NCBI GenBank assembly: GCA_043732185.1
Contig: JAYTHY010000125.1
Coordinates: 1-54,181, forward strand
Source: Fibrobacteria bacterium
GTDB taxonomy: Bacteria; Fibrobacterota; Fibrobacteria; UBA11236
Reading direction: 5' to 3'
Length of the DNA: 54,181 bases
Shown: piece by piece, positions 27,771-54,009 of the stretch
How positions within the stretch are numbered: position 1 is the first letter of the stretch
Layout: every line of letters begins with the position of its first letter
Notes under the pieces: generated by a model
Told to the model about the DNA's origin: nothing
The model's database searches: none
Seen by the model: the letters and a program-made list of their open reading frames with translations, nothing else
Program-made: the position numbers and the translations under genes

Positions 27771-29007
27771 AGGGAAGATTTTTTTCCAGGCAGTAGCAAA
27801 GCTGCGCGTACACTGTTCTATAGCTCTGAGCGTCAGACGCAGATTTAAGAATCCGTTCGGCCAAGTTTCCCTCCGAAAAAATGAGATTCAGCGCAGGGGC
27901 AAAGACCTCATCCGCAGCCTTTAAATACAGGGGTCGAGCGGCATGTGCAAAGGCTTTATCGGTCAAAACGCGGAGCACGTCCCGGACGGTAGCACCGGTG
28001 TTGGCCTCTTCCAATCCGAATGCGCCGCTTGGAAAATCTTCCGGCACTTTAGCGGCCATGCCGTAACGGGCGCTATCCAAGAACAGGGATTTGAGTAGGC
28101 CTGCAGGCACTTTGCGGTGGATGGCCAAAAAATCGGATTCGCTATCGAGCATTAGAGTCAATACGGAAACGACCCAGTGGCAAAGGGCCACGTCAGCGAG
28201 AGGCCGCTCCTGCGTGTCCAAACATCGGATCTCAATGGCACTTCTATCAAATCGTGCTATTGCCGCGCGGGAATTGAGCCATTCATGGGCCAGAATTCCG
28301 TCTGGGTCCAGGGGACGTATAGCCTTATACATGGGGGCTAAAATAACCTCGCGATATTCTTCTTCACTGCCAATCGGTTCCGGAATGATGTCTCCAATAA
28401 TGGCCGGCAGTCTGCGCTGATTGCCGATATAATGGAAAAGCCTTCCATCCAGCCAGCCGTTATGTGCTCCTGCGAATACAGGGCTGGCCGCTGCCAGTGC
28501 CGGTAGCAAAGGCAGCAAAAGACTGATGGCATTGTGCAATCTGGAAAACTCGCGGTCGTTGGCGAAAGGAAGATTAAGATGCACGCTCTGAATATTGAAC
28601 CATCCATGTCCCCGACAGCCGAAAATCCGATCGTAATTCTGGTAGATGGGGCTGTCCGCATGGGGCCATAATGTGGACTCTTTAGCTGGATCCATAAAGG
28701 GATGCATTCCTGTAGGCATCAGCCGAGCATTCCACCCAGCCAATACTTGATTGACCTTTTTTATTGCAGCTGAAAAGTCACGGGCTTGTGCAGCCAAGTC
28801 CACGGCCGGTTCCCGGCACTTGATCTCCAATACATGAGCGGCCAATTCATTGTCCGCTTCCACATTGCCGAACACTGCCTGTAAATTGGATTTTCCTTCC
28901 AAGGCCGACATAAGGCGATCAACGGAAGCGTCAACCGCCATCGTGTTACCATGCACGACGGCATATTCTATTTCAATTCCAAATACTGAGAAAAGCGGGT
29001 AAGCCAA
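27754..29007 (-). CDS. Glutamate-cysteine ligase family 2 (GCS2) carboxylate-amine ligase
   Basis: FGIEIEY, NELAAHVLEIK, PTGMHPFMDP, HGWFNIQSVHLNLPF and WLNSRAAIARFDRSAIEIRCLDTQE motifs. Confidence 0.88.
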   Translation of the reverse strand: MAYPLFSVFGIEIEYAVVHGNTMAVDASVDRLMSALEGKSNLQAVFGNVEADNELAAHVLEIKCREPAVDLAAQARDFSAAIKKVNQVLAGWNARLMPTGMHPFMDPAKESTLWPHADSPIYQNYDRIFGCRGHGWFNIQSVHLNLPFANDREFSRLHNAISLLLPLLPALAAASPVFAGAHNGWLDGRLFHYIGNQRRLPAIIGDIIPEPIGSEEEYREVILAPMYKAIRPLDPDGILAHEWLNSRAAIARFDRSAIEIRCLDTQERPLADVALCHWVVSVLTLMLDSESDFLAIHRKVPAGLLKSLFLDSARYGMAAKVPEDFPSGAFGLEEANTGATVRDVLRVLTDKAFAHAARPLYLKAADEVFAPALNLIFSEGNLAERILKSASDAQSYRTVYAQLCYCLEKNLPFKTRI

Positions 29008-29033
29008 ACTAAGGTTCCGGATTTAGGCGAAGA

Positions 29034-30557
29034 CTATCCGCCCACCTGCATCTTTAAAATTTTCATGGCGACCAACGGTGAGGTAACATCCTTTTCTTTC
29101 CGTGCCTTCAGCTTGTCGATGCGGTTGGCAAACTCTTCCATAATGGTATTGTAAAGCGTGTCCTTGAGCACTTCGTCTTCAACACCGGATTCAATGTTGG
29201 GATTGTCATTCACTTCCACCACATAGGGCTTGTTACCCACAACTTTGAGATCCACTCCGTACAATCCATCGCCGATGAGCTTGGCGGCCTTAAGCGCAGT
29301 GTTGATGATGATTGGCTCCACTTGGGAGACGGCATAAGTTTGATGGCTCCCTTCACCGGCCTTGCCGACCTTATGGTGGTTGATGATTTGCCAATGGTTG
29401 CGGGACATGAAATATTTACAGGCGAATAACGGTTTGCCGTTGAAGATGCCGATGCGCCAGTCAAAGGGCGTGGGCATGAATTCCTGGGCGACGAGATAGT
29501 CCGATCGCTTGAAATATTCCTTGCATACGGATGCCAATTCACCTGGATCTTCCACCTTGACCACACCGCGGGAAAAAGAACCATCGGGAATTTTAATGAT
29601 GATTGGAAACGAAAACTGGTCGTAGATATAGGAGACGTTGTCTTCGCTTACAATAAAGGTCTTGGGTCTGGGAATGCCTTCCCGCTTGAATAGCTCATTC
29701 AGAAATATCTTGTTGGTGCAGTACAGGATGGACTTGGGATCGTCGATGACGATCATCTTTTCCTTTTCGGCCTTTTTGGCAAAGCGGAAGGTGTGATGAT
29801 CTATCGACGTGGTCTCGCGAATGAACAGGCCGTCAAACTGGGGCAAATGGGCGAAGTCCTTTTTCTCAATGGTCTCCACTGAAAGTCCGGCGATTTTTCC
29901 GGCCTTGATGAATTTCTGAATGGCCGAATCATTGGAGGGCGAAAAGCGCTCTTGCGGATTGTGCAGGATGGCGAGATCGTACCTTTCGGAATTGCTTTGC
30001 CGTTTATTTCCCCATTTGTGCACGCCGTATTCCACCAGTGCTTCCAGAAACACGCCAATGTGCGAATCTGGGATACTGTTGATGGACATGGATTTGATGG
30101 AGGTCAATATCCATTGCTTCTCCCGGCGGAAATAAACCTTGAAAAACGGACTGGGAAAAACATTGAAGAACATGCGTGAAAGTTTTTCGTATTTCTTGGA
30201 TACGTTTCTTCCGAAATAAACCGACAGTTCATACTTGTTATCGGTAATATTCGCCAAATCCTTTTGGATTTGTGCGTTCAAATCATCCGTTTCAATGAGG
30301 TAGAATTCCTTTTTCGACAAGGCCTGCATGGTGGAGATATTGGGAATCACCTTGTGATTGCGCGCTTCCGCAACCAAGGAAACATAATAGCCCGAGCCCA
30401 AGTAGCCATAGTTATTGGCCAGGTTGATTATTTTAAGCGGCCGCAAATCCTGCCATTCGTTGCCGAACAGATAATCGTTCACACTGATGAATTCGATTTG
30501 CGGCACCCGTTTTTTCCAGTGCCTCACATTTTCAACTACGCATATATTTCTAATCAT
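29034..30557 (-). CDS. RimK-family ATP-grasp ligase with N-terminal RLAN-type domain
   Basis: YLGSGYYVSLVAEARNHKVIP, DGLFIRETT, KIPDGSFSRGV, QEFMPTPFDWRIG, YGVDLK and EVNDNPN motifs. Confidence 0.92.
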   Translation of the reverse strand: MIRNICVVENVRHWKKRVPQIEFISVNDYLFGNEWQDLRPLKIINLANNYGYLGSGYYVSLVAEARNHKVIPNISTMQALSKKEFYLIETDDLNAQIQKDLANITDNKYELSVYFGRNVSKKYEKLSRMFFNVFPSPFFKVYFRREKQWILTSIKSMSINSIPDSHIGVFLEALVEYGVHKWGNKRQSNSERYDLAILHNPQERFSPSNDSAIQKFIKAGKIAGLSVETIEKKDFAHLPQFDGLFIRETTSIDHHTFRFAKKAEKEKMIVIDDPKSILYCTNKIFLNELFKREGIPRPKTFIVSEDNVSYIYDQFSFPIIIKIPDGSFSRGVVKVEDPGELASVCKEYFKRSDYLVAQEFMPTPFDWRIGIFNGKPLFACKYFMSRNHWQIINHHKVGKAGEGSHQTYAVSQVEPIIINTALKAAKLIGDGLYGVDLKVVGNKPYVVEVNDNPNIESGVEDEVLKDTLYNTIMEEFANRIDKLKARKEKDVTSPLVAMKILKMQVGG

Positions 30558-32139: not shown

Positions 32140-33492
32140 ATGAGCAGACCCCACCAACTTTTCGCACGACCCGGGCTAATCCTTTGTCTTGTCTCGATAT
32201 GTGTATTATCCGCCGCCGCTGCCCCAACACTTTCTGGTCCCGCCGCCGCCGCCAAGGCTTTTGACTCGTTGCTCACGGCAGGGAAACTCAACGAGGCGCG
32301 CCGCCTCTGCACCGGCCAGGTCCTGCGCATGTTTGACTTTATCGCCATGGCCCAGGCCAAAATGGCTGAAGCCATCGACACTTCCAAATCCACGGATACC
32401 ACCCTCGAAGAAAAAACCAACGGGACCTGGGCGTATCTTAAAGTCTCCAGCCACGTGGTATTCAAGCGGCCCATGCTCGGCCAAAACGAAATCCAGTCCG
32501 TGCAGGCCATTCATCTTTTCCGTGGCCCCAGGCACTGGATGGTCGCGGAAATGGAAGAGCTTGGGAGTGCGACCGATATCGTCCATCTCCATACCGGACG
32601 ACCCGAGGACAGCCACGACAACGGCAAGGATTCGGCACGGCCCCTCGAAAGCTCCCCCAATTTATTCCCAGTATCCAGCAAAGCGCCCGCCACTGCCGGA
32701 GAAGCCGATGTTCTACAGTACCGCTTGCGGTTAAAACAGGGTGGCTCGCTGGCCCGTTTCTGCGCTCTGGGCAGTGAACAAAGGTTGATCCGCGCAGAAA
32801 GCCCATCTCAGTGGATTCTGGAAAACCGCAAATCCAAACTCGGCTCAAAGCCCAAAGCGGGTGCTGCAATAAGTCGCATCGCCCTGGACTCCCTTAAGCC
32901 GTACCTAACATCCAACGCCTACCTGGTTTTGGCGGATACCCTACTGATAGCCACGGCCACCCGGATAGCGGGACAGGAAACCGATCCAGTTAAGGTAACC
33001 GGCAATATATACTCTTGGGTTACCGCTCACTTTAATTTCGAACTCGGTGCGGTGTTATTCGGCACCAGCCCCGAGGTCCTGCGCAACCTGACCGGGGATT
33101 GCTCCGAGGCTGCAATCCTAACCGCCGCGCTTTTGCGGGCACGGGGCATCCCAGCACGCTTGGCCCTAGGTTTCGCGAGTGTAGGCCGAGGCGTTTTCAT
33201 TGGCCATGCCTGGACAGAGGCCTTCCTGCAAGGTCAATGGGTAGGCGTAGATGCCGCCTTACGTCAATTTCCAGCCGGGGTGGAACGGGTACATTTGGCG
33301 GAACAGGATGGAAAGGTTGATATGCGCGTTGCCGCCACCAACTTGATGATGTCGGTTTTGTCCAACCTCGATATCGAAATCCTCTCTGCTGAAAAAAATG
33401 GCAAGGCCATCCCTTTGACGACCTACGAAAACAATGCCGGGGAGGGCAAGAAATTTTTTGAAAGCATTCTGAAAGGGCTGGGCACACCCTGA
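32140..33492 (+). CDS. Exported transglutaminase-like domain protein
   Basis: Signal peptide. GDCSEAA..AALLRARGIPAR, GHAWTEA and WVGVD give the Cys-His-Asp triad. Confidence 0.88.
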   Translation: MSRPHQLFARPGLILCLVSICVLSAAAAPTLSGPAAAAKAFDSLLTAGKLNEARRLCTGQVLRMFDFIAMAQAKMAEAIDTSKSTDTTLEEKTNGTWAYLKVSSHVVFKRPMLGQNEIQSVQAIHLFRGPRHWMVAEMEELGSATDIVHLHTGRPEDSHDNGKDSARPLESSPNLFPVSSKAPATAGEADVLQYRLRLKQGGSLARFCALGSEQRLIRAESPSQWILENRKSKLGSKPKAGAAISRIALDSLKPYLTSNAYLVLADTLLIATATRIAGQETDPVKVTGNIYSWVTAHFNFELGAVLFGTSPEVLRNLTGDCSEAAILTAALLRARGIPARLALGFASVGRGVFIGHAWTEAFLQGQWVGVDAALRQFPAGVERVHLAEQDGKVDMRVAATNLMMSVLSNLDIEILSAEKNGKAIPLTTYENNAGEGKKFFESILKGLGTP

Positions 33493-41663: not shown

Positions 41664-42998
41664 ATGCGGACAATTATTACCCATCTAAAACCACTCTCCA
41701 TTGGTATTCTTTTCTGGACGGCTTCATTCTGTCAGGCCCAATCGTGGCACACCGACTCGCTGACCGTGGTGATGCTCATTGATTCGAATCGTATTAAGAC
41801 CAAAACCTTTGCAAATATTGTCACGGCTGAAAGTGGGCGGATAACGGCGCTTGATTTTTCCAAATGCAATCTTCAGAGTCTTTCCGGAATCATTGGGAAT
41901 ATGGATGCTTTGACAACTCTTATTCTCAGTCAAAACAATTTGAAGACTTTACCGACTGAAATCGGCTACTGTACTAAACTGACTTCTATTTATCTGAAGG
42001 GGAATACTTTCAAATCTTTACCGACTTCCGTTTCAAAATTGACAAATCTGATTTTTTTGGATCTTTCGGACAACCTTTTGGATTCCATTCCGAAGCAGGT
42101 TTTTGCCATGGCCAGCCTCAAAGAATTATGGCTGAACAACAATTTATTGAAGAGCATCCCTCCCGAAATTGACAGCTTGCAATCTCTGACCAAACTCAGC
42201 ATTGTGCATAACCAACTTTCCACCATTGCACCCGAAATCGGCAAACTCTCCAAGCTGAGTGAACTCGTGGTAGAGACTAATAAGTTGGTAAAGCTTCCAT
42301 CAGAAATTGGAAATTGTACGGCTTTACAAGGCGTTTCATTAAGCGGAAACCAATTGGATTCCCTGCCGGACAGTTTCGGGAATCTATCACATCTCTTAAC
42401 TTTGAGTCTGGTTGGGAATAAGTTTACGGAAGTGCCCAACAGTATGCTCAGGCTTTCGTCCTTAGTCAGTTTGAAACTCGGATACAATGCGCTGACCAAG
42501 CTTCCGGACTCTATTGCCCAACTTTCCAAGTTACAGACGGTATACCTTAACAACAATCGACTAACTGCGTTACCAGCAAGCGTTTCTAAATTGGGACCCC
42601 TCCAGATTCTTGACGTTTCACACAATATTCTCTGCAATCTTGACCCAAAAATTTCGACCTGGATTGATCTTTATGATAAAACCTGGCGAGCCTCTCAGGA
42701 GGGCTGCAGTATTGTACTTGGATTTAAGGACTCGAAAGGCAAGGACAAAAATCGGGCAGGGTTGAGCATTATCAGGCAGGTTGGGGCCTCGTCTTTTACA
42801 ATCCGTTTTCCACGAGCTGGAAATTGGGAGGTCATTATCTCGCGCCTATCTGGTGCGCGTGTTTTCTCGAAGTCCTTTAGATCAAGCCAAGCGGGAAGCG
42901 AATTTCAATTTGATATGCCGCATACTTTCCTGCCCCGCCTATCCGTCCAAGTGACGTCTTTTCCAGAAGGCCGATCCAGACCAGCGCTGATCTTTTGA
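41664..42998 (+). CDS. Secreted leucine-rich-repeat protein
   Basis: Signal peptide. About 11-12 repeats of 23 aa (LxxLxLxxNxLxxLPxxIG), a Cys-flanked cap and a C-terminal beta-rich tail. Confidence 0.92.
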   Translation: MRTIITHLKPLSIGILFWTASFCQAQSWHTDSLTVVMLIDSNRIKTKTFANIVTAESGRITALDFSKCNLQSLSGIIGNMDALTTLILSQNNLKTLPTEIGYCTKLTSIYLKGNTFKSLPTSVSKLTNLIFLDLSDNLLDSIPKQVFAMASLKELWLNNNLLKSIPPEIDSLQSLTKLSIVHNQLSTIAPEIGKLSKLSELVVETNKLVKLPSEIGNCTALQGVSLSGNQLDSLPDSFGNLSHLLTLSLVGNKFTEVPNSMLRLSSLVSLKLGYNALTKLPDSIAQLSKLQTVYLNNNRLTALPASVSKLGPLQILDVSHNILCNLDPKISTWIDLYDKTWRASQEGCSIVLGFKDSKGKDKNRAGLSIIRQVGASSFTIRFPRAGNWEVIISRLSGARVFSKSFRSSQAGSEFQFDMPHTFLPRLSVQVTSFPEGRSRPALIF

Positions 42999-44036
42999 GT
43001 AATAGGTTTTCCTAATCTGTAGATAATGTGCGAATGCGCTTTCAATGGATTTTGAATAAGCGGACAATGCTTCCCGATTGCCACTAAAAACCTCGTCAAT
43101 GGTCTTGGCCGCCTCTATTCCAGAATTCAATCCTTTGTAAATCCCTTGAGAAGAAAGCGGATCGAAAGACAATGCCGCATCTCCAATAGCCAGCCAATTG
43201 GAACCGGCGGCAGGAAATGTTACAGCACTTTGAGCGGCCAATGGTTGCAGGTTGGAAAGCATATTGCCAGCTTGGATCCGATGTTTTGTATAGGCAGATG
43301 ACTCAAGGCATTCCTGCCAAAAACCGCTTGATTGCTTTTTGGATCGCGCGTAAATATCCGCATCCGTCATAAAGACGGCAACGGTTTTATCTTCAGGCAA
43401 ATCCGCGGAATACCACCATCCATTTTCTATGGATTCAATCAGCGTGCAGCCAGAATACCGAGATTCGTCTTTCTGAGTTGGGAAATAGGCCGCTACGCCC
43501 ATCAGTTTATCAGACAGCACGCGCTTGGCTCCTTTTTGCTTGGCAACCACCGCAGCGCGGCCCGTTGCATCGACCATAAATCGTGCGCAATATTCCTGGG
43601 TAGATTCCTTGAATTGCACGTTCAAGCTCCAACCTCCATCAGGATTGTCAGAACTCTGGATTACCGACGCGCCCCGTAGAACCTTGGCGCCAGCTTTTTC
43701 CGAAGCACGCAGCATCATCGAATCAAATTTTATTCGATCCAGATTCCATCCATTGCCATAGGGGTTAAAGATGAAGTTGTTTTCATACAACTCCGCCTGT
43801 CCCCAGGACGATTGAATGCCGCTCGATTTTAAATGGTTGTCTGACAGGAAGCGCTCCCAAACCCCCAATTTTACTAGGGGTTCGCGCACCTTCGGGACCA
43901 GAGTTTCACCGTAGCGGATTCCATCCAGCGGACTTTTTTCGATCAGGAGAACCGAATAGCCTTTTTGCAATACTGCAATAGCTGCGGAAGCGCCTGCTGG
44001 ACCTCCCCCCAAAACGGCTACATCGAATGTTTGCAA
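42939..44036 (-). CDS. LodB/GoxB-like FAD-dependent oxidoreductase (CTQ maturation flavoprotein)
   Basis: DVAVLGGGPAG, GETL, VDATGR, ENGWWYSA and AIGDAALSFDPLSSQGI motifs. Directly downstream of the LodA-like gene. Confidence 0.88.
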   Translation of the reverse strand: MQTFDVAVLGGGPAGASAAIAVLQKGYSVLLIEKSPLDGIRYGETLVPKVREPLVKLGVWERFLSDNHLKSSGIQSSWGQAELYENNFIFNPYGNGWNLDRIKFDSMMLRASEKAGAKVLRGASVIQSSDNPDGGWSLNVQFKESTQEYCARFMVDATGRAAVVAKQKGAKRVLSDKLMGVAAYFPTQKDESRYSGCTLIESIENGWWYSADLPEDKTVAVFMTDADIYARSKKQSSGFWQECLESSAYTKHRIQAGNMLSNLQPLAAQSAVTFPAAGSNWLAIGDAALSFDPLSSQGIYKGLNSGIEAAKTIDEVFSGNREALSAYSKSIESAFAHYLQIRKTYYSKDQRWSGSAFWKRRHLDG

Positions 44037-44055
44037 AAAATGGGTGTAACCCGGT

Positions 44056-45576
44056 TTAGGGATTACGCTCCGATTCTAAATATTTTTCACCTTTTTTAAT
44101 CACGAATCCCAGGTGATGCCACTTGTCCACCATGGTCTGGAAATCGGTCACATGCCACCTGGTCCATTTGTGCATTTCCGGTGAATCGTCCGTAAAGACA
44201 TAATCAGGCCGTTGTGCCGGCCACCAAGCTAGCTCTTCATCCTGCTGACAGTCGAAGAAATCAGCTTGCCAAGGCAGTGCCATTTGCTTGGTGAGGTCAC
44301 CGGCTTCAAGGACAGCATGCGACAAGCGGAAGGGTTCGCTGAACTCGAAATGATCCCTCAAAAACCAGCTGGCTTCCATGCCCGGATAAAATGGGCCGCC
44401 GATGCAGTTTTCCAACGCCGCTTTATCCAATCCCTCGGGCGTAATTTCTGTAACGGGTGTAGGCAATCCAGACCAGTCCTTGATAAAATCACCCTCCGCC
44501 CATTTTTTCAAATACGCGTATTGCCATTTGCACAGCGTTTCGTTGCGGGGTTCGCCATTCTTTTTTTTCTGATCCTGATAATAATCACTCCAGAGCATGG
44601 GCATATCATTATCATCGCCGCCTAGGGGATCGTTCGGGTCGGTGAGTTTGGCAAATACCCGGTTTCTCAGTTGATCATTCGAGATAATCGGCATGCTGTC
44701 TTCCATGGCATTGTGCTTGCTTTCCATGGTCTTGGGCCTAGTGCCATGCGCCTGATGCATTTTCCACATCATCATGCTTACCCATTTTAGATTGTTGGCT
44801 CGGGTTAGAATGGGATAGAGGTCCTTTGTGAAGGAAGGGATTTCCGGAATCTTCAGCGACAATTTATCGATGGCCACCTGCAGCAAGGTGTCGTAAAGGT
44901 TGATGACATTGGTCAAGGGCGGCGCGAAATCCGGGGGAGCGCAGATAACCCAAGCGGGTGAGGCTGTGAGCGTATGAGTCGAGCCGTTGAGTTTTACTGT
45001 GGCGGTGACGGGCCCATCGGAAACATCATCATGCCAATCGTTATTGTTGGCGAATTCGGTAAGCGGTTTATTGTGCGGAGAAGCGGAATGGCCAAAACCA
45101 CCTAGTACCAGCAACCGCCCATCCTTATCGGTTTTCATAAGTCCCAGTGGAACAGTATCTGCATAGAATCGGCCGGAATCAAAAACCGCCGTGGCGTTGA
45201 TTTCGTCCAACGACCTTTCGCCTGGATCAATGATAAGCTTGCTCCGATTCTTCTCTCGCGCATTTCTGAGCGGAGCATTGGGATTAAGGCCATCAAATTC
45301 CTTCCACGCGGCCTTTTTATTAGCCAGGTGCGCGGTCCATTTGATTTTGGCGTCAGCGGCCGTGATTTCCTTAACGACATTTCCGTGTTTATCATATCCA
45401 AAAATTCTGAATCGGGCCGCCTGCCGTTTTACCCGCATCTGAGAATCCTTATACCCACCAGTAGGTGGATCGTTGACGCCCGGTAATTCCGGACCAATGA
45501 AGTACTGATCCGGGCTATTGCCTAAGCGGGCAATGCCAATGGCAGGGTGAATTTTGAAGGATGTAATCGGATGCAT
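44056..45576 (-). CDS. LodA/GoxA-family CTQ-dependent amino-acid oxidase
   Basis: IHPAIGIARLGNS, VKRQAARFRIFGYD, HLANKKAAW, GRLLVLGGFG, WHDDVSDGPV, CIGGPFYPGME (CTQ Cys), MALPWQADF (CTQ Trp), WWPAQRP. Confidence 0.93.
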   Translation of the reverse strand: MHPITSFKIHPAIGIARLGNSPDQYFIGPELPGVNDPPTGGYKDSQMRVKRQAARFRIFGYDKHGNVVKEITAADAKIKWTAHLANKKAAWKEFDGLNPNAPLRNAREKNRSKLIIDPGERSLDEINATAVFDSGRFYADTVPLGLMKTDKDGRLLVLGGFGHSASPHNKPLTEFANNNDWHDDVSDGPVTATVKLNGSTHTLTASPAWVICAPPDFAPPLTNVINLYDTLLQVAIDKLSLKIPEIPSFTKDLYPILTRANNLKWVSMMMWKMHQAHGTRPKTMESKHNAMEDSMPIISNDQLRNRVFAKLTDPNDPLGGDDNDMPMLWSDYYQDQKKKNGEPRNETLCKWQYAYLKKWAEGDFIKDWSGLPTPVTEITPEGLDKAALENCIGGPFYPGMEASWFLRDHFEFSEPFRLSHAVLEAGDLTKQMALPWQADFFDCQQDEELAWWPAQRPDYVFTDDSPEMHKWTRWHVTDFQTMVDKWHHLGFVIKKGEKYLESERNP

Positions 45577-45610
45577 ACTTTTTTACATGGTCCTCTATGG
45601 ATTTACAGTT

Positions 45611-47350
45611 TCAGGTCAGTTTAACCCATTTGGCAATAGATGGAACACCGTTGCCATTGAGAACAAAAAGCATGTAATAGCCTTTGGGCGCAAAGGCATG
45701 GAGGCTGCCGCCATCCGGTGCGGTGGCGATTAAGTTATTGGGATGCGCATGGTCGTGAAGAAAAGACAACTCAATCACCCGCTGATTGGTTTCGGTTTGA
45801 TGGGTAACGGCCATGGGTTTCACCAGGGTGACTCTGGTGATCATGGTTGCATCCGGAGTAGCAATGGTAAATTGTGCACCAAAGTTTACCGTGGCCGGAA
45901 CGCTGGCAATGGTGGGACGGGCTCCTTTGAATAAATAGGGCGGGCTAAAAATTTCAATGGTACCGCTGCTTGCATCATTTGCCCAACCGGACATCATTAC
46001 TTTTCCGCTGGGCAGAAGAATCATTACGGAATGATACATGCGCACGGAAGCTAAATTGGCCATCGCCGACCAGATATTGGCAACTGGATCAAAAAGCATG
46101 CAAGGTGAATTTGAAGAATCGACTCCGCCTGCGACAAAGACAGTATTATCGGGTAGTAGAACAGCATTTGGTTGCCGCCGGGGATTGGAGTCGGGCAATG
46201 GCGCAGTCAATGCCCAAGAACTTGCCGTGGACAGGAACGAGGCATCGATGATTTCAGCCGCTGCGTTGATGCCGGATCCGGAGGCTTCACTCCCCCCCAC
46301 CACTAGAATGCGTGTATGCGGGCAGGTATTTCTGTAGAGTACCACCGACATGCCTTTGGCCCGGTTTAGCGTGGACGGTGCGATGGGACTCCAAGTCCCG
46401 GCGGTAGGTCCGGTAAAATGAAGCATGGCAGAGTCGTCGTTGGTGGCCGGGGCCCCACCGCCAGCGCTGCCCCAACCTGTTCGCGTGTAGAAAAGCACGT
46501 TATTGGGAAGCAGATGCAGGCCGGGATAAAGATTAGGAAATCCTAAAGTAGCGCCGCTTACACTTACAAAGGAATCGGACACTTCATCATAGATTTCAAT
46601 ATCATTTTGCAACACCGCATTTTGATCCCAGCCGCCAACTACCAGCATGCGGTTATCGCCTGTCGTGACAGCTGTCGGATACCATCTTACCTTGTTCATA
46701 TCGCCGCCGGTTTTAGTCCAGGTTTTGGCGACAGGATCAAATTTGAAACCTTTATTCGCTCCGGCCAATGGCCCGAATCCGCCGCCGCCCACAACGAGCA
46801 GTTTCCCATCGGAAAGAAAGCTATGCCCGCTACAGGTTAATGAATAGCTAGGGTTGTTGACGGGAAACTCGAACTGGGGGTTGATTTCATCACTCGGATC
46901 CCAAATGGGTGTGGGGCCATTGTCCAGAAAGAGTACCTCACCCGTATGCAATAGCGCCGCATGCACAATGCTGACGCTGCCACCGCCTTGCCTTGGGATA
47001 GTGTAAGGCAAAGTCTTCCAGCTTCCGAAAATGGCGTCGCTCAAAAAGTCGAAAAGTTTTCCGAACTTTATATCGGCAACTTTAAAAACCTGATCCAAGT
47101 GGGTGAAGCCCATGGGAAACTGTTGCTCCCGCAACGCGAAGAGCGCCTGTGCGGAACGAGCGTCCATCAGCATCGGCTGCTTTACATTGGTTTTTTCTGC
47201 GGGCCCCATGTCTGCCATCTGTTCCGCCGACATGGGGCGGACAGGTATGTTCATGAGATCAAACGGGCTGCCTGCATCATTAATGAACTTCAATATCCGC
47301 CGGTGATGGGCAGGATTGATTTTAGCGATTTCGTCAGCCCGTTCTTTCAT
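45611..47350 (-). CDS. Copper-radical oxidase (galactose/glyoxal oxidase-like, kelch + DUF1929) with N-terminal HhH-like extension
   Basis: TCSGH (Cys), RWYPT (Tyr), RMYHS (Tyr-His), VTHQ (His), EIFSPPYLF, APKGYYMLFVLN..GVPS. Start ATG 47350 with GAGGAG RBS. Confidence 0.9.
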   Translation of the reverse strand: MKERADEIAKINPAHHRRILKFINDAGSPFDLMNIPVRPMSAEQMADMGPAEKTNVKQPMLMDARSAQALFALREQQFPMGFTHLDQVFKVADIKFGKLFDFLSDAIFGSWKTLPYTIPRQGGGSVSIVHAALLHTGEVLFLDNGPTPIWDPSDEINPQFEFPVNNPSYSLTCSGHSFLSDGKLLVVGGGGFGPLAGANKGFKFDPVAKTWTKTGGDMNKVRWYPTAVTTGDNRMLVVGGWDQNAVLQNDIEIYDEVSDSFVSVSGATLGFPNLYPGLHLLPNNVLFYTRTGWGSAGGGAPATNDDSAMLHFTGPTAGTWSPIAPSTLNRAKGMSVVLYRNTCPHTRILVVGGSEASGSGINAAAEIIDASFLSTASSWALTAPLPDSNPRRQPNAVLLPDNTVFVAGGVDSSNSPCMLFDPVANIWSAMANLASVRMYHSVMILLPSGKVMMSGWANDASSGTIEIFSPPYLFKGARPTIASVPATVNFGAQFTIATPDATMITRVTLVKPMAVTHQTETNQRVIELSFLHDHAHPNNLIATAPDGGSLHAFAPKGYYMLFVLNGNGVPSIAKWVKLT

Positions 47351-47367
47351 TTTATGCTCCTCAATAC

Positions 47368-49308
47368 CTACATGGAGATTGTGATGGAACCGACCATAGG
47401 CGCACCGTGAATCCCACATTGGAAATCCACCCTATCGCCCATGCCGCCAGTCATGATTACCGTTTTCATGCCCAACGGAACCGGGGTGGCGGAATTGGCA
47501 GCCAAGTTTCCACCAGGACCGCCATTCACTTCGGGTCTATTGATGCTGCCGGTCTTGCTCACCGTAGTCACGGAATGAAACGTGTCCACAAAATTAAAGG
47601 TGACCACCGTGCCGGAGGGTACAGAAATATCCTTGGGTGTGAACTCGAAATTCTTGACTGTAATTGTAGCGGCTGGAGCAATGTCCTCATCCGGACACAT
47701 TTCGCCACGAGGCAAAATGACCGCCTGTCCGCCGTCCACAATCAGCAAAGAACCCATCATGCCGCTCATCATATGGTCCAGGAAATGGCAATGCATATGC
47801 CACTCGCCTTTGGAATCGTTGGGCGATTTTCCACCGGCGCGCATAAAGCTGCCAACCGCTCCATTGATGGTAAAGCCAAAGGAACTGGCGGGCCCAAAAA
47901 TACGCGTGTCTTCGAACTGGGAAACGGCTTTGACTTGGGCGCTGCCCTGTATAGCACCGGCAGTATTTCCATCCGGTCCCGGCACCGTCCAGCGATGTCC
48001 ATGGATATGGAACGTATGCACATCCCCCGTTTGGCCCATGCCCACAACGCCAAAACGCATTTTGGTAGATGTGCCGGCCACCACAGAAGGCGTATTGCCT
48101 AAGTAGGTTCTTCCGTTGATATTCATGCCCGGGGAACTGGTCAGCTTGTGATAGAGCTGAAGGTAAATCGCCTGCGTTGGCGGAGTTTTATAATGACTGG
48201 TGCAAAGACCCTTGATAGCCGTCAAGTCCGTATTCAAGTGGAACAAAACGTTGTTCTCTTGAACGACTCGGCCTATATCGGCGGGAAAGGTTTTCGCCAC
48301 CTTATGCGTGGCCATATTCATTTCATGGGGTCCGCCTGGATGGATCAAGTCGAGAATATGCGGATCCACCATACCCAATTTTTCCCGAATCCCGGCGTCT
48401 ACAAAAACTTCCGCTGGCAGATTGAAACAAGTGAGCGCAACGGGATTTCCAATTTGACTATTGTCTGGAAAGTCGGCATTGGATACCGTGAAATCATTTT
48501 CAGTATCGGCCGGGTTATGGATAATGACCATTCCAATCGCGCCTAAACCCATGTTTTTATCATCGCAGAAGGAATGATCATGATAGAGCCAGACCCCTGC
48601 AGTGCTGGGCCAGCCCTGCGTTGTCCAGCTGTACACAAAGGTGCCGCCAGGAGGTATCCGGTCACCCATTTTAAGCGTGCCAAAGTTAGTGCTGGCACCC
48701 GGGGCCACGGTGTTCCAAAGTGCTGTTTCATTGGGTCCGGCAATCTGTCCTGCCACCGGCGTGGTACCGTCTACCCGCTGGGTGGCATCCGCACCGGAAA
48801 GAGGATAGGCTCCATCATGCTCTTGCTTGAAGACAAAACCGTGCACATGCAAGCTGTGGGCGCGAGCCTTGGTGGACTTGGTCGAACGCATATCCAAATT
48901 GCGGAAATGGACTTTAATTTCTTCACCGACATTGCATTCAATGGGAGGACCGGGAATGGTTCCCATGGTGCCGCTATCGGTTGGATCTTTTTCATTGATG
49001 TCCCAAGGATTCACTTTACGATCATCGGGTACGGCCCACTCCGCAATCCCGGCGGCCGGGTCCGGTGCTTTATACCTTCGGAAAATAAGGGCCTCCATGA
49101 CCTTTCCATCCGTATCTCGAAGAGGCGCATACATTCTGCGGGTATGGCTTACACGAACACCAGTGCCTGCCGCATTGGGCGATGTGATGGTGACGACTTC
49201 CGATGCCTTTCCAGTGATGGCAAGGGCATTTCTACCCGTCATGCGGTCGATATTATTCGGCATGGTGTCCCAGTACCTGTTTTCCAGTTGAATCCAAATT
49301 TCCGGCAT
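47368..49308 (-). CDS. Two-domain (small-laccase-like) multicopper oxidase with extra C-terminal cupredoxin domain
   Basis: HSLHVHG, WLYHDH, HTFHIHGH and HMHCHFLDHMMSGM motifs. C-terminal FTPKDISVPSGTVVTF..FHSV...CGIHGAPMVG. Confidence 0.9.
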   Translation of the reverse strand: MPEIWIQLENRYWDTMPNNIDRMTGRNALAITGKASEVVTITSPNAAGTGVRVSHTRRMYAPLRDTDGKVMEALIFRRYKAPDPAAGIAEWAVPDDRKVNPWDINEKDPTDSGTMGTIPGPPIECNVGEEIKVHFRNLDMRSTKSTKARAHSLHVHGFVFKQEHDGAYPLSGADATQRVDGTTPVAGQIAGPNETALWNTVAPGASTNFGTLKMGDRIPPGGTFVYSWTTQGWPSTAGVWLYHDHSFCDDKNMGLGAIGMVIIHNPADTENDFTVSNADFPDNSQIGNPVALTCFNLPAEVFVDAGIREKLGMVDPHILDLIHPGGPHEMNMATHKVAKTFPADIGRVVQENNVLFHLNTDLTAIKGLCTSHYKTPPTQAIYLQLYHKLTSSPGMNINGRTYLGNTPSVVAGTSTKMRFGVVGMGQTGDVHTFHIHGHRWTVPGPDGNTAGAIQGSAQVKAVSQFEDTRIFGPASSFGFTINGAVGSFMRAGGKSPNDSKGEWHMHCHFLDHMMSGMMGSLLIVDGGQAVILPRGEMCPDEDIAPAATITVKNFEFTPKDISVPSGTVVTFNFVDTFHSVTTVSKTGSINRPEVNGGPGGNLAANSATPVPLGMKTVIMTGGMGDRVDFQCGIHGAPMVGSITISM

Positions 49309-49418
49309 GAATCATCCTTTGCGATGCGTTGTGTAACGCGTATACCCTCTGCCTACTCTGGAACGGATTTTCGGCTTACTCCGATGTTGAACAGACCTCC
49401 CACCGCTAATTCGGGCGG

Positions 49419-50276
49419 TTACACGTATTGATACCCCAAGGAAACGGTATTCCGGGTATCGGCCTCAGTATAGGTCCAAGGAGAAATCGCTCCTGCAATG
49501 ACAGGGTTTTGATGGCCGCCGGCAGGACTGTTGTACCAAAGCCACCACAACCTATCCAAGTTGGCATGGTGCAGCCAGAATACAGGATCGGCCGGCGATG
49601 TGCTGGGATCGCTCATGGTTCCGCCCACCCAGACGTGTACGCCACCATGGATACCGCTGATCGGGCCCGTGAAGTCGGCGTAATTGGTTTGTCCCATGGC
49701 CGCAGGTACTCCAGAAACGGTACCGGCAAGCCAACTTTCCGCGCCGGGGCTACGGATAACATTTATGGTACGGGTCGGCGTGTGCACGGTAGGCAAAATG
49801 CCCACGAGCCAATCGGGGAAATGTTGTTCGCTCGGTTTGGTCCAATCCCAGTAAGGAATGCACACATCGGGATGATACCGGTGCAGGGCTTCTTCAAAGA
49901 GGTGGAGGAATATACGATGCCAAGGCAATAGCCTTAGACTTCCATGCTGCATGTAGGCGCCCGCATGCAAATCCACCATGGCTCCCAAAGTGCCGTCGTT
50001 ATTGACCATATTGAAAGCGCAGATATACCGGGATTTTTCAATGTCGGTCAGGGTTGCTTGATCTTTCCGTTTGCAAATCGGAGGAAAGAACCAAGGCCAT
50101 TTTCGCGCGAGGGAAAGGGAAGCCTTATCCATCTCCAACATTTTCGCAAACGTCATGGATCGGGAAAGAGTGGGGAGATTGTCCAGTACCAACTGCTCAA
50201 TATTTCGGTGCGCGCGAGAATTCATGACGTCGAGCGAACTTGATTTGGCTTTTGATTTTGATTTTGTCTTGGGCAT
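49419..50276 (-). CDS. Tyrosinase (type-3 copper protein)
   Basis: CuA DLH...QHGSLRLLPWHR, IPYWDW, CuB IHGGVH...SPADPVFWLHHANLDRLW. Start ATG 50276 with GGAG RBS. Confidence 0.92.
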   Translation of the reverse strand: MPKTKSKSKAKSSSLDVMNSRAHRNIEQLVLDNLPTLSRSMTFAKMLEMDKASLSLARKWPWFFPPICKRKDQATLTDIEKSRYICAFNMVNNDGTLGAMVDLHAGAYMQHGSLRLLPWHRIFLHLFEEALHRYHPDVCIPYWDWTKPSEQHFPDWLVGILPTVHTPTRTINVIRSPGAESWLAGTVSGVPAAMGQTNYADFTGPISGIHGGVHVWVGGTMSDPSTSPADPVFWLHHANLDRLWWLWYNSPAGGHQNPVIAGAISPWTYTEADTRNTVSLGYQYV

Positions 50277-50450
50277 AGCATCTCCATTCGGTGGACTGAT
50301 TGGAACGCGTATTCCTCTCAGTGGTTTATTGAATCGGAGCTTTAGACTTTGGGAAAGTGGAGGATGGTAACCAAAATTTTCGCAGCGAGGAAAATTCCGA
50401 TCCAAATCGAGCGAGGCGCGAGGGAGAAACTATCGTTTCGGTACTTTTCG

Positions 50451-50505
50451 TCTGTCATCCCGGTGAAAACCGGGATTCAGATTAGTGCTTATACTGGACG
50501 ACAGA
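50451..50505. repeat. REP-like palindrome (GTCATCCCG...CGGGAT type), remnant of a doublet
   Basis: TCTGTCATCCCGGTGAAAACCGGGATTCAG has a perfect ATCCCGGT/ACCGGGAT stem and is followed by CTGGACGACAGA, whose end is complementary to the left end. Confidence 0.6.
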
Positions 50506-50534
50506 CTACTAGCTGAATCGTAATCATCCGTTCT

Positions 50535-53500
50535 CTAAAAAACCGTGAATTTCCGTACTATTCCGGCGACGCCTTTTCCATTGACCTTAACAATGTAAAT
50601 TCCCCGTTCGAGTTCCGGCAGCAGCACTTTCTGACCAACCGTACCAGTGGTTTCGACCCATTTGCGCGCTATCCGCTGTCCACGGAGGTTGACTATCTCG
50701 ATTGTTAACCGGTCGCCTTTGGGCCAGTTGAGTGAGAGAGAACAACCGCCGGTTTTGAGCATTGAAAATACGACGCTTTGACCGTTGGTTACGGGTCGCG
50801 CCGTGACAATTGCTGTCGTTGCGTCGTTGTAAATGGGAACATTGCAGAAGGTGAGTGCCGCGATATCGTTCGTTCCCCAGAGGAGATTGCTCCCACTCCA
50901 GGATCGGCTGTCGAGATATGTGATTTTCGTGGCGGTTGATGCGGCATTGAGCGTGAGCGTCAGGATATTGTCGGATAGCGCACCGGAAGCCACCTTGCCA
51001 CTCAGGCTGTCTAAATAGAACTGTGAGGTCAGGCCAGCGCTCCATTTTACCGGCTGGTCGAATTCGAGCGCGATGGCGGTTTTGGCGGTTGACGTGTAAT
51101 AGGCCCTCTTTAGGTCGGGTGGCGTGATCGACACGGTGGATTTTTTTCCGTAGTTGTCCCGTTCGACAAGCGGGGTCATGAGGCTTACGAACTCGTCGTA
51201 GCCTGCTTGTGAGGAATGACACCCTACACCTGCCTTGATGCCGAGGGTCGACATGATGCCCATGTTCGAATAGTGGTACGGCAGGGTTCTCTGCACTTCG
51301 CGGAGTATATTGTCCTGCCCGCCGGCACCGGCCTGGGAGCAACCATTGGGCCAGATCTGGAAAATGTAATAGTGTTTGATATTGGGGTAATCCTGTTTCC
51401 AGGCCGCCGACATATCGACAAAGTACTGAAGGTAGGTCTTCCATCCCCAAATGCCGGTGGGCCCATCGGAACCCTGGTCAGCCTCGCCCTGGTGCCAGAG
51501 CACGCCGCGGATGCTGTGCGTCAACTTCGCGCGCTGGATACGCGTGAGCAGTCTGCCGTAAATGGTGGTTGTGTCGGTAGGATTGACTTCGTTGCGCTGG
51601 TGCAGGTCGATACGAGTGCCTCCGACCGAGCCGTTAATGAGGCAGATCGGGACGTTGTAGGTAGTCACCAACCTCCGGGCGAACTCCAGGGGCCAGTACC
51701 CGACCTGGGCAATGCCGCCATTTGCCTTCCAGACCGCGTTCGCCCAAGTGCTCCCGGGCGAGTTTCCGCCCGCATTGCCGTAGGTTCTGATCCATTCACT
51801 GGTCGGAGGAGCAAAGTTTGCGGGAACACTTTCAACTGTTGTGCCATCCGCATTGGATTGGCCTTCGATAATGTAGGCGTCGCCGCAGAGAGTGTTGTTC
51901 ACGGTGTTGAGAAGCGTTTCGGTGGATCCGGTCTTGGAACCGAATTCTATTTTGTATTCTACAAGACCCGGGCCGATCTTGGGCGCAAAGCTGTAGGCAC
52001 CGGCCACAAGTGTCTGGGCCACCCTTTTGTAAAGGTTCGTCCCTGCGTAGATGTTCATATAGACGGAATCGGGCGCGGTGGTAAGCGTCCCTTTGTAATA
52101 AATACTGCAACTGTCATGATCGTCACGCGCATAGAACTGGTTGTCCACCGGTTTTTCGTTGGCATCCGGCTTGCGCACTGCCCAGGCGTCGGATGCTAAC
52201 TCGGTGACCGCGATGTCTACGGAGTGCGTTACCGGGACGCCACCATTGCTAATCGTGAGCGTTACCGTCATCTTCCCGCTACCCTGCGATCTCGTGAGCG
52301 TCAGTTTACCCGGAGTTATGGCTTTGACAACGGCGACGTTGGCTACGTCCCACGCATAGGTCAACGCGCCGACGCCCTGGGTTTGCATGGCACTCAAATT
52401 GGAAATCTGAGACGCTACATCAATGGAATCCCTTCCATTCCATGTCTTGGGAGCTACCAGAGTGAAAACCGGATCAGACTGGGCTTCGGTAATGTTTATC
52501 GTGACGGCTTGGGTTTTCATTCCGCTTGGGTACAATGCCCGGAACTCCAGCACCACAGTTTTGTCCCCCGACACCCGGCCGACAGGATAGTTGATGCTCT
52601 GGCGGTCCACGGCAATAATTTTTTCCGTTCCCGCTTCTTTCAGCACCCAATACGTTTTCTGAGCACCACCCGCACTGGCGGTTATTGCGGTGCTGCCGCC
52701 CTCATTCACCGTCACGGATGTCGGTGTAACAGAAAAAGCATTGCCTTCGGGAACCAGCAGCCCTGCCAGCGACTGCAAGGGGTTCTGATTTGCATAACAC
52801 ATCTTTATCCAGTCCTTCGATCGCCCTGCACTCTCGAAGCGGACCTCATCCAGCGCACCCTGAAACGGGCCGCGGGCTCCGCCATGGTTGCCGACAACGA
52901 CCGCCGTCGGCGAAGGCGTCGCCAGCGTTCCAATTGGGGTCTCCTTATCCAGGACTCCGTCCATGTAAAACCGGATGCTGTTCCCGGAAATGGAGAGGGC
53001 AACATGGTGCCACTGGTTGAGGGGAACAAGCGTGTTGCTTACGGGATCAGGTCCGTAAAGGTGAAGCTTGAACATGCCAAGACCCGTCATTGTCATGATA
53101 GACAATCCTAAACTCACATTATCCTGACCCCATCCTCCGATGCTGGCCGAGGCCCAGTTGGTGCCTTCAAAACTAGATCCATTGATCCACGCCGATAGGG
53201 TCCGATCCTGATTGCCCGACGGCATACAGGTAACTTTTCCATCACTTAGGCCGCCCGGCTGGCGGATTTCCATCCCCATGGTTGTTCCGAAGAGGCGCGC
53301 CCCTCCTATCATGCCGGTTTGGGATGTGGTGCTATTGTTGGCCCCGTCCAGATTGTTTTGGGTTGCATCTTCAATATTGTCACCAAAGTGCCAGGCACCG
53401 GCGAACCCGTTCGCCGTATCGAAAACTGCGGCCCCGTTCGACGCACTCGTCGCAGCGGAATTTCCCCAGTACATTTTGATGGCCTGCCGCGAGTTGCCCG

Positions 53501-53828
53501 TAATGGTCGGAATCCGTACCCATATCGATGCTTTCCCGTTTGCCGCATCCCACTCCTCAATCTGAAATGGGAGCGCTGTTCCCGAGGGAGTGGAAAAACG
53601 GATGTCTGCTCCACCTGTTGAGGCCTGGCTGAACTTAAAGAAATCTTTGTCGAGCCTGACGAGGAGCGGGAACCCTGTTTCCGACGCCGACGCCGGAATG
53701 TTCGCCCCATCAGGCGTTGTGATGATGAACAGCGAATCGGAATAGGTCCAGGCAGTATACTGGGCGAAGGCGTTTCCAACAAGTGCTGCGGCGGCAAGAA
53801 TCAAGGTGAGACACAATTTGTATTTCAT
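50535..53828 (-). CDS. Secreted DUF2341 + LamG + SGNH acetylesterase (DUF303/SASA-like) protein with C-terminal sorting-like tail
   Basis: Signal peptide from ATG 53828. FPLLVRL..DIRF..IEEWD..WVRIP (DUF2341), WHHVA..FYMDG..GALDEVRF (LamG), EGQSNA and WHQGEAD (SGNH). Tail IEIVNLRGQ...GIYIVKV. Confidence 0.87.
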   Translation of the reverse strand: MKYKLCLTLILAAAALVGNAFAQYTAWTYSDSLFIITTPDGANIPASASETGFPLLVRLDKDFFKFSQASTGGADIRFSTPSGTALPFQIEEWDAANGKASIWVRIPTITGNSRQAIKMYWGNSAATSASNGAAVFDTANGFAGAWHFGDNIEDATQNNLDGANNSTTSQTGMIGGARLFGTTMGMEIRQPGGLSDGKVTCMPSGNQDRTLSAWINGSSFEGTNWASASIGGWGQDNVSLGLSIMTMTGLGMFKLHLYGPDPVSNTLVPLNQWHHVALSISGNSIRFYMDGVLDKETPIGTLATPSPTAVVVGNHGGARGPFQGALDEVRFESAGRSKDWIKMCYANQNPLQSLAGLLVPEGNAFSVTPTSVTVNEGGSTAITASAGGAQKTYWVLKEAGTEKIIAVDRQSINYPVGRVSGDKTVVLEFRALYPSGMKTQAVTINITEAQSDPVFTLVAPKTWNGRDSIDVASQISNLSAMQTQGVGALTYAWDVANVAVVKAITPGKLTLTRSQGSGKMTVTLTISNGGVPVTHSVDIAVTELASDAWAVRKPDANEKPVDNQFYARDDHDSCSIYYKGTLTTAPDSVYMNIYAGTNLYKRVAQTLVAGAYSFAPKIGPGLVEYKIEFGSKTGSTETLLNTVNNTLCGDAYIIEGQSNADGTTVESVPANFAPPTSEWIRTYGNAGGNSPGSTWANAVWKANGGIAQVGYWPLEFARRLVTTYNVPICLINGSVGGTRIDLHQRNEVNPTDTTTIYGRLLTRIQRAKLTHSIRGVLWHQGEADQGSDGPTGIWGWKTYLQYFVDMSAAWKQDYPNIKHYYIFQIWPNGCSQAGAGGQDNILREVQRTLPYHYSNMGIMSTLGIKAGVGCHSSQAGYDEFVSLMTPLVERDNYGKKSTVSITPPDLKRAYYTSTAKTAIALEFDQPVKWSAGLTSQFYLDSLSGKVASGALSDNILTLTLNAASTATKITYLDSRSWSGSNLLWGTNDIAALTFCNVPIYNDATTAIVTARPVTNGQSVVFSMLKTGGCSLSLNWPKGDRLTIEIVNLRGQRIARKWVETTGTVGQKVLLPELERGIYIVKVNGKGVAGIVRKFTVF

Positions 53829-54009
53829 AAAACAGGCCCATTTCTTATCGTTAAAATGTTTGGCATGGAGCAGGATCAAAACATAGTCTTTGGTGAAACA
53901 TCCAGCCTGCCGATTCGCACTTCTTGAATTTTATTCAGCTTCTATTACTAAACGATAACTGTCTAAAAAATGAATATTATTGCATTTATTTCGAAAATAG
54001 GGGTAAATG

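Follow-up and report, generated by a model that had tools for sequence, protein, structure and literature searches.

Genetic coupling of a multicopper oxidase, a copper-radical oxidase and a compact LodA-like quinoprotein in a bacterial multi-oxidase module

A 54,181-nt contig of a Fibrobacteria bacterium (JAYTHY010000125.1, assembly GCA_043732185.1; the whole stretch is called the window below) carries five adjacent genes for a tyrosinase, a multicopper oxidase (MCO), a copper-radical oxidase (CRO), a compact LodA-like quinoprotein and a LodB-like flavoprotein. Four of these, the MCO, CRO, LodA-like and LodB genes, are genetically coupled: they recur together in a conserved order and are often fused into single polypeptides. 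The reading preferred here, to which a probability of about 0.5 is given, is that they constitute the conserved core of a multi-oxidase module that is probably intracellular because its proteins are signal-less. The tyrosinase is a recurrent yet facultative fifth member. The most interesting aspect lies outside the window: the MCO-CRO and MCO-CRO-LodA fusions are a widespread, unstudied enzyme family, of which the window holds the unfused five-gene form.

Conservation of the gene block

The nearest DNA relatives of the window are Fibrobacteria metagenome-assembled genomes (MAGs), and three other MAGs of this group retain the entire block: L001, whose proteins are 86-97% identical; L003, at 55-81%; and a third, represented by two of its contigs (L002 and L006). 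The genes flanking the block in L003 differ from those of the window and the block therefore travels as a unit. Compact LodA was found in 4 of 296 Fibrobacterota genomes, all from a single genus (4 of 15 species, the window's genome counted); such a patchy distribution marks the module as an accessory trait.

A metagenome scan with a 41-sequence LodA alignment (A1) gave 532 confirmed relatives; 80 of their loci were labelled in tblastn and blastp searches that used the five window proteins, and collapsing LodA sequences at least 95% identical left 60 groups. A CRO gene lies directly upstream of LodA (same strand, less than 700 nt away), or is fused to it, in 29 of the 56 loci with the at least 300 nt of upstream sequence that made them assessable. 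The association follows LodA identity to the window's protein: 29/44 at 50% or above, 0/12 below 50%. Where at least 400 nt further upstream were available, an MCO adjoins or is fused to the LodA-linked CRO in 17 of 22 loci. Of the 49 loci that could be assessed for LodB, 43 encode a homologue of it downstream of LodA. Gene order is conserved across a LodA identity range of 50-96%, and the GC content of the CRO-linked loci (0.42-0.67) implies several lineages. The first-pass annotation had named co-localisation of the homologues in other genomes as a test of its proposed operon, and the MCO, CRO, LodA and LodB genes are indeed syntenic elsewhere.

The tyrosinase gene behaves differently. It occurs somewhere in 11 of the 60 dereplicated loci, at varying positions, and is absent from 49. 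For example, L013 has all five genes in another order (MCO, tyrosinase, CRO, LodA, LodB), and L034 has MCO, tyrosinase, CRO and LodA, followed by the contig end. The proposal that all five genes make up "one oxidative machine" therefore stands for the four syntenic and often fused members, and does not extend to the facultative tyrosinase.

Other LodA and CRO loci provide a comparison. In a 401-genome sample of Acidobacteriota, ten LodA loci of other clades had no CRO or MCO, and one of the ten had a tyrosinase; close compact LodA occurs in 2 of the 401 genomes, in both as a long C-terminal fusion without a CRO. No copper oxidase gene accompanies LodA at the plasmid loci of Rhizobium and Bradyrhizobium, and no LodA gene accompanies the CRO at the loci of Burkholderia and Variovorax. 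A quick IQ-TREE phylogeny was made from 68 LodA domains (stop-free matches covering at least 80% of the query), which left out partial loci such as L059, L063, L065, L079, L082 and L104. On this tree the label "copper oxidase in locus" changes 8 times; shuffling the labels gave a mean of 23, and none of 500 shuffles came down to 8. Since the relatives are non-independent, this shows clustering and is not a probability. The window falls in a fully supported clade of seven rows, all copper-linked.

Two loci deserve separate mention. On the Sinorhizobium meliloti plasmid pRRI128_2 (L099, 118-129 kb), a LodA-like gene that matches only in four frame-shifted pieces is accompanied by a partial LodB, and a CRO gene lies at a distance of 8 kb; the region is perhaps what is left of a related module that has decayed. 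A 2.3-kb contig of a MAG labelled Hyphomicrobiales (L005) encodes LodA and LodB proteins 80% and 56% identical to those of the window, closer than any non-Fibrobacteria match, and may be a mis-binned Fibrobacteria contig.

Fusion proteins

MCO-CRO fusion open reading frames occur in 16 of the 60 groups, mostly with a length of 1020-1050 aa. Three of the 16 are MCO-CRO-LodA triple fusions (L063, 1314+ aa; L064, 1449 aa; L067, 1494 aa). Pfam confirms the domain sets of the fusions in L018, L066, L064 and L067. Among 120 long CRO relatives listed, 26 contain MCO domains by Pfam, and two of these, P0238 and P0242, contain LodA_N and LodA_C as well. MCO-CRO clusters of 61, 53 and 106 members are present in the ESM Atlas, where Acidobacteriota and Pseudomonadota are named for a few members; named carriers of the fusion include a Blastocatellia MAG and Sedimentitalea todarodis.

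At least three types of MCO are tied to these CROs: i) MCO-a, the window's type, which has an extra C-terminal domain; ii) MCO-b, of about 540 aa, which is fused directly to the CRO propeller; and iii) a larger one, ~1100 aa, that contains bacterial Ig-like domains. The third type, seen in L014:1178-4582, stands beside a window-type CRO or is fused to one. Four proteins of 1690-1760 aa (P0141, P0142, P0146 and P0160) contain it, and one example of the type is annotated in Sedimentitalea todarodis.

The oxidases and their catalytic residues

The first-pass annotation described five genes with intact active-site motifs, a description upheld by the Pfam assignments and by the aligned catalytic residues in the four oxidases. 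The CRO, the only one in the window's genome, consists of a ~120-aa N-terminal domain, a kelch propeller and a C-terminal E-set domain, with Pfam matches to GO-like_E_set (PF09118, 4e-22), Kelch (PF01344, PF13964) and Glyoxal_oxid_N (PF07250). Its closest PDB match is GlxA (4UNM, 3e-45), and C173, W223, Y224, Y439, H440 and H517 align with the corresponding GlxA stretches. The copper ligands Y224, Y439, H440 and H517 are kept in 36-37 of 37 relatives, and the window's CRO also retains the cross-link Cys (C173) and the stacking Trp (W223). The N-terminal domain (residues 1-120, nt 46985-47350), for which Pfam gives no match, is shared by the window-type CROs, the 1690-aa fusions among them, and is missing from the ~1040-aa fusions. 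By eye only, it resembles a helix-hairpin-helix motif.

One CRO subclade, nearly all of it fused to MCO, has lost two hallmark residues: the cross-link Cys is replaced by Ser in 15 of the 37 relatives and the stacking Trp by Phe in 17, with the four copper ligands kept. Members of this subclade (L018:11-3145, L020, L024, L028, L036, L039, L044, L055, L061 and L079) would be, to judge from these substitutions, radical-copper oxidases without the hallmark thioether. Another variation is seen in the database proteins P0147, P0148 and P0149, in which a CRO relative is fused to a peroxiredoxin-type domain; P0147 and P0149 additionally carry an SCO1/SenC copper-insertion domain, and the N-termini of the two proteins inspected, P0147 and P0148, are signal-peptide-like. 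Proteins of this type appear to represent a different, exported way to supply a CRO with a copper chaperone and a peroxide scavenger.

The MCO matches Cu-oxidase_2/_3 in Pfam and two-domain laccases in the PDB (E ~4e-12). Its type-1 (T1), type-2 and type-3 (T3) copper ligands are complete (H154/156, H243/245, H431/434/436, H506-C507-H508, H512 and M517), and the four copper motifs are invariant in the MCO alignment A2. An AlphaFold2 model has a pLDDT of 78 overall; the C-terminal domain is all-beta with a pLDDT of ~90. In a Foldseek search with this model (646 aa with inserts), the two-domain laccase Ssl1 gave a TM score of 0.66-0.69 normalised to the target, and 9CCK ranked fourth. The C-terminal domain, ~100 residues long, is a pendant cupredoxin: H578, C631, H634 and M638 are invariant in 68 MCO-a relatives, and some relatives are annotated "plastocyanin" or carry PF00127. 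The window's own domain matches Cupredoxin_1 and Copper-bind at a sub-threshold level only, and by itself found no match in a sequence search against the PDB. Across 32 aligned MCOs, the T1 axial position is Leu in 18 and Met in 14, the window's MCO among the latter. Leu-axial MCOs are taken to be mainly of the fused MCO-b type, an assignment made without tabulation against fusion status; a Leu-axial T1 site is usually of higher potential. The window's genome has four further MCO loci.

The LodA-like protein matches LodA_N (PF17990, 3.7e-75) and LodA_C (PF18417, 4.2e-28) in Pfam, and LodA (2YMW/3WEU, 4e-45) and GoxA (4e-30) in the PDB. In the alignment to LodA, D439 corresponds to D512 and C443 to C516. 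A second HMMER stretch, not significant alone, places the WWP motif (W451/W452) on W580/W581 of LodA. All four residues, D439, C443, W451 and W452, are invariant in A1. Cys443 and Trp452 are spaced 9 residues apart, as compared to 65 in LodA. More than 5800 relatives exist; among the 120 best, identity is 54-95% and length 482-538 aa, bar one 338-aa fragment, and the nearest are either 480-530-aa proteins or C-terminal fusions of 1100-1500 aa. This compact LodA clade is large, unnamed and entirely uncharacterised. Its presumed maturation partner, the LodB-like protein, matches Trp_halogenase/FAD_binding_3/DAO in Pfam and is encoded 19 nt downstream; the maturation role of LodB is known from LodA/LodB (PMC4417212). 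A complex prediction for the LodA-like protein (with A1) and MCO residues 540-646 gave no answer (score 0.00), which is evidence neither way.

Many compact LodA domains bear C-terminal extensions of 540-1040 residues (L004:10004-13474, L007:2319-5768, L066:9995-13690, L075, L077:423-4211, L081:9995-14533, L083, L085 and L090). The extension of L007 contains a heme-oxygenase-like iron domain (PF14518) and that of L081 two PLD domains; the others have no Pfam match. On the LodA tree, it is the basal clades that carry such extensions instead. In L081:9995-14533, residues 399-461, the region of the cofactor loop, weakly match PF08992, the gamma subunit of quinohemoprotein amine dehydrogenase (E 1.9e-4, below cut-off). 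L004, L007 and L068 adjoin protease genes (M36 or S53/S8).

The tyrosinase, also the only one in the genome, matches PF00264 (Tyrosinase, 1.2e-33), has tyrosinases and hemocyanins as its PDB matches, and contains the six CuA/CuB His of a type-3 copper tyrosinase (H104, H111, H120, H210, H214 and H237). Streptomyces tyrosinases typically have a caddie gene; the 110-nt and 258-nt gaps flanking the tyrosinase gene contain no open reading frame, and so no MelC1-type caddie gene. In L046:4527-7694 and L047, a 1055-aa protein combining a tyrosinase with a von Willebrand A domain is encoded just downstream of the LodA/LodB pair.

Location in the cell and peroxide handling

A secreted or membrane-anchored location is a defining feature of CROs. 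The five proteins of the window lack any visible export signal. Their maximum Kyte-Doolittle value in the first 60 residues is 0.63-1.53, as compared to 2.74 in a secreted neighbour; the lowest value, 0.63, belongs to the CRO, which has no N-terminal hydrophobic segment. Both neighbouring genes of the block encode such a segment. Those fusion N-termini that were inspected by eye also lack an export signal. Two stretches, "RRILKF" and "TRRDIFLK", were considered as twin-arginine (Tat) signals and rejected because no hydrophobic region follows them. The hydrophobicity scan used a 12-aa window and was supplemented by inspection by eye, a crude procedure; within its terms, the absence of Sec and Tat signals noted in the first-pass annotation is confirmed.

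No caddie, catalase or peroxidase gene is present among the open reading frames of the window region examined, as had also been claimed. In the whole genome, which is 100% complete by markers, neither catalase (PF00199) nor haem peroxidase (PF00141) gave a match; AhpC/TSA-type proteins gave 12.

Proposed mechanism and alternatives

The genetic coupling leads to a proposed reaction order, substrate and electron path for the module. By analogy with LodA/LodB, LodB would hydroxylate the target Trp, so that the LodA-like protein forms cysteine tryptophylquinone (CTQ). The LodA-like enzyme would oxidise a primary amine to an aldehyde. The CRO would share this metabolite stream. In the simplest case its substrate would be the aldehyde just formed (in hydrated form) or a related alcohol; the chemically natural sequence runs from amine through aldehyde to acid. 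The MCO would be a dedicated protein redox partner that takes single electrons via its type-1 copper, here through the pendant cupredoxin. It would produce or regenerate the CRO's Cu(II)-tyrosyl radical and hand the electrons to O2, and it may also drain electrons from the quinone. CROs become inactive and require a one-electron oxidant; their dedicated partner in fungi is a peroxidase (PMC11611005). The earlier suggestion that the MCO serves the radical oxidase fits the pairing of MCO with CRO. Three further features agree with such a redox role: the pendant T1 ligands do not vary among the 68 MCO-a sequences, Leu occupies the T1 axial position in 18 of the 32 aligned MCOs, and in Nmar_1354 a pendant cupredoxin sits 13.5 A from the MCO T1 copper (PMC11761707).

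A full electron chain, in which the electrons of both LodA and CRO are collected by type-1 copper, which in the window's MCO is that of the pendant cupredoxin, and passed to the trinuclear cluster, would oxidise amines and alcohols or aldehydes in the cell and reduce O2 to water instead of H2O2. It is tentative, and rather unlikely to hold as a whole. If true, the triple fusions would be single ~1450-aa polypeptides containing CTQ, a tyrosyl-radical copper site and the four MCO coppers, and the module would be a new enzyme class and the first natural bacterial CRO activator. A rival explanation along similar lines, peroxide-free wiring with the LodA-like enzyme and perhaps the CRO acting as dehydrogenases that feed the MCO type-1 copper, and O2 reduced to water by four electrons in the cell, is likewise unlikely. 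It would account for the invariance of the pendant T1 cupredoxin in the 68 MCO-a sequences, the minimal MCO-a/LodA/LodB loci without a CRO (L015, L016, L082), the existence of triple fusions, and signal-less proteins in a genome without PF00199 and PF00141 enzymes. Methylamine dehydrogenase, which passes its electrons to amicyanin, is a parallel. Against this wiring, the characterised LodA/GoxA and CRO enzymes all use O2 directly and release H2O2 (PMC4417212, PMC11611005), the 12 AhpC/TSA-type matches could clear that H2O2, and CRO-LodA loci without any MCO exist.

The first-pass annotation inferred either H2O2-based antagonism or aldehyde/quinone cross-linking of a matrix, coat or pigment, which is taken here to mean an extracellular or released machine. 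Marinomonas LodA, released without a classical signal and acting through H2O2, is a precedent, and the tyrosinase and laccase of Marinomonas are co-regulated with LodA (PMC4417212); the patchy distribution (4/296 Fibrobacterota genomes, one genus) would also fit an accessory ecological trait. Nothing in the data points to such a role, however: Sec, Tat and type IX secretion system (T9SS) signals are absent from the five proteins, while each of the two neighbouring genes encodes one, the inspected fusions are also signal-less at their start, and no conserved export, lysis or structural target gene lies nearby. A released machine is thus improbable. Equally improbable is a pigment or small-molecule cluster (melanin-like or a natural product), in which the tyrosinase and MCO would make quinones and LodA and CRO would supply aldehydes. 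The tyrosinase and MCO recur beside lodA in two unrelated LodA clades, that of the window and group ID (PMC4417212; see below), and related compact LodA proteins have a heme-oxygenase-like iron domain (L007) or a PLD domain (L081) as fusion partner. The tyrosinase is missing from 49 of 60 loci, though, and no conserved core biosynthetic, tailoring or export genes accompany the module. That the oxidase genes are functionally unrelated neighbours by chance is very improbable. The promoter and terminator scans, being uninformative, leave room for it, yet the order is kept at 50-96% LodA identity, fusions occur in 16 of 60 groups and none of the ten control loci has a CRO or MCO; synteny and fusions already contradict a chance neighbourhood.

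Several observations weigh against the four-protein intracellular module itself. Intracellular copper oxidases are unusual, and the absence of signals rests on inspection and a crude hydrophobicity scan. Five of the 22 CRO-LodA loci with room for an MCO show none. Partners are lacking in both directions, with MCO-LodA loci without a CRO (L015, L016 and L082) and CRO-LodA loci without an MCO (L037 and L043), so that LodA is the hub and neither partner is obligatory. Taxonomic breadth is deduced from a few named proteins and the GC spread. No copper chaperone gene was found within the window, and no further conserved neighbour around the core, whether transporter, regulator, export, lysis, structural target, biosynthetic or tailoring gene. 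The AlphaFold2 model of the LodA-like protein made with A1 has a mean pLDDT of 56.7, falling to ~30 around the cofactor motif, too poor for a check of the cofactor site. Promoter and terminator scans of the block were at or below shuffle expectation.

CROs lose their radical and need re-oxidation, for which a single fungal peroxidase pair provides the only agent known in living cells. A conserved MCO partner, in many loci part of the same polypeptide, would be the bacterial answer and make a self-activating biocatalyst. The fixed partners of the compact LodA clade narrow the search for its substrate, and in the triple fusions electron transfer between quinone, radical copper and multicopper cluster could be measured directly in one protein.

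Gene block and flanking genes

The coordinates of the block are given in Table 1. The five genes are co-directional with gaps of 110, 17, 34 and 19 nt, the same values from the open reading frame coordinates as had been reported. A Shine-Dalgarno sequence, GGAG, lies 5 nt ahead of the tyrosinase ATG at 50276, and the CRO start (ATG, 47350) is backed by relatives that align over the full length. From the short gaps and the Shine-Dalgarno sequence before the first ATG, the five genes are best read as one transcription unit, with odds that are about even. One sigma-70-like match lies upstream of the tyrosinase gene at 50458..50429; such matches are no commoner than in shuffles (7 found, 10.2 expected).

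Table 1. Features of the five-gene block; positions are those of the window
Feature	Position	Strand	Description
Tyrosinase gene	50276..49419	minus	285 aa; ATG start; open reading frame and Pfam
Multicopper oxidase (MCO-a) gene	49308..47368	minus	646 aa; open reading frame and Pfam
C-terminal pendant cupredoxin of MCO	47371..47691	minus	Residues 540-646; type-1 copper ligand set
Copper-radical oxidase (CRO-a) gene	47350..45611	minus	579 aa; open reading frame and Pfam
Compact LodA-like quinoprotein gene	45576..44056	minus	506 aa; putative CTQ enzyme
Putative CTQ motif PWQADFFDC...WWPAQRPD	44203..44274	minus	LodA-like residues 435-458; alignment to LodA
LodB-like flavoprotein gene	44036..42939	minus	365 aa; TTG start; presumed CTQ maturase
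Intergenic region 5' of tyrosinase gene	50277..50534	minus	258 nt; likely promoter region

The 5' neighbour (50535-53879, minus strand) encodes a secreted 1114-aa DUF2341-LamG-SASA esterase protein with a T9SS C-terminal sorting domain. The 3' neighbour (41664-42998, plus strand), for a secreted 444-aa leucine-rich-repeat protein, is convergent and shares 60 nt with the end of lodB. Elsewhere in the window, the stretches 27754-30557 and 32140-33492 hold a GCS2-type glutamate-cysteine ligase gene beside a RimK-like ATP-grasp gene and, close by, a gene for a transglutaminase-like protein, none of which has to do with the block.

Comparison with known systems

The first-pass annotation knew of no characterised system of this composition. 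That statement stands for the link to a CRO. It does not stand for the combination of tyrosinase, MCO, lodA and lodB, which has been known since 2015 from another clade with a longer LodA and no CRO (PMC4417212). The operons of that clade, group ID, contain a tyrosinase gene, an MCO gene, a lodA-like gene, a gene of 138-142 aa and lodB, and occur in 11 genomes of four phyla, Bradyrhizobium japonicum USDA6 BJ6T_51940 being one example; a functional relation was already proposed by the authors (PMC4417212, Campillo-Brocal et al. 2015). The window shares with group ID the tyrosinase and MCO genes in a lodA operon. It differs in that the group ID LodA has 737-913 aa and the window's 506 aa, short forms (481-527 aa) having been left ungrouped there, and in that the small gene between lodA and lodB is replaced by a 19-nt gap; Saccharophagus degradans is the sole group ID member without the small gene (PMC4417212). 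No group ID operon was found in the plasmid searches. The available text of PMC4417212 does not contain the term "galactose oxidase", and therefore describes neither the CRO nor the fusions. Within the literature that could be reached, which excludes most subscription journals, no paper was found on a link of CRO with LodA-type proteins or on MCO-CRO fusions, and the words "multicopper", "fused" and "operon" are absent from a 2022 CRO review. What is new is the CRO link and, outside the window, the fusions, lodA/lodB operons with accessory copper oxidases being already known.

The LodA/LodB (L-lysine epsilon-oxidase; 2YMW/3WEU) and GoxA/GoxB (glycine oxidase; 6BYW) systems of Marinomonas mediterranea have the same Pfam domains and the same Asp-Cys-Trp residues, with the flavoprotein gene directly downstream as in the window. 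The window's LodA-like protein is ~220-310 residues shorter and is encoded among copper oxidase genes.

GlxA of Streptomyces lividans (4UNM), to which the CRO aligns at the Cys-Tyr, stacking Trp, Tyr-His and His positions, is its best solved relative. GlxA has a membrane anchor, and its partner is a cellulose-synthase-like protein. The window's CRO has no visible anchor or signal, a different ~120-aa N-terminal domain, and MCO and LodA-like partners. The tandem pairs of alcohol oxidase (a CRO) and peroxidase in Colletotrichum and Magnaporthe likewise couple a CRO genetically to a one-electron oxidising metalloenzyme activator (PMC11611005). The fungal partner is a secreted, H2O2-using haem peroxidase, whereas that of the window is an O2-reducing MCO, signal-less and often fused in relatives.

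For the MCO, SLAC/Ssl1 (3CG8, 4M3H) come closest among solved structures, both by sequence over the T1/T3 domain and by structural fit. These proteins are secreted through Tat and have 276-343 aa, as compared to the signal-less 646 aa of the window's MCO with its added cupredoxin. The same overall plan, a two-domain-MCO-like core with a C-terminal T1 cupredoxin, is found in Nmar_1354 (MCO4) of Nitrosopumilus maritimus, in which 13.5 A separate the pendant copper from the T1 copper of the core (9CCK; PMC11761707). Similarity in sequence is marginal (E 0.006); Nmar_1354 oxidises hydroxylamine, and the window's MCO differs from it in its ~540-aa core, which is extended at the N-terminus and contains a long insert. 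The MCO4 lineage was called unique to ammonia-oxidising archaea (PMC11761707, 2025). By this comparison, the window's MCO extends the pendant-cupredoxin architecture to bacteria.

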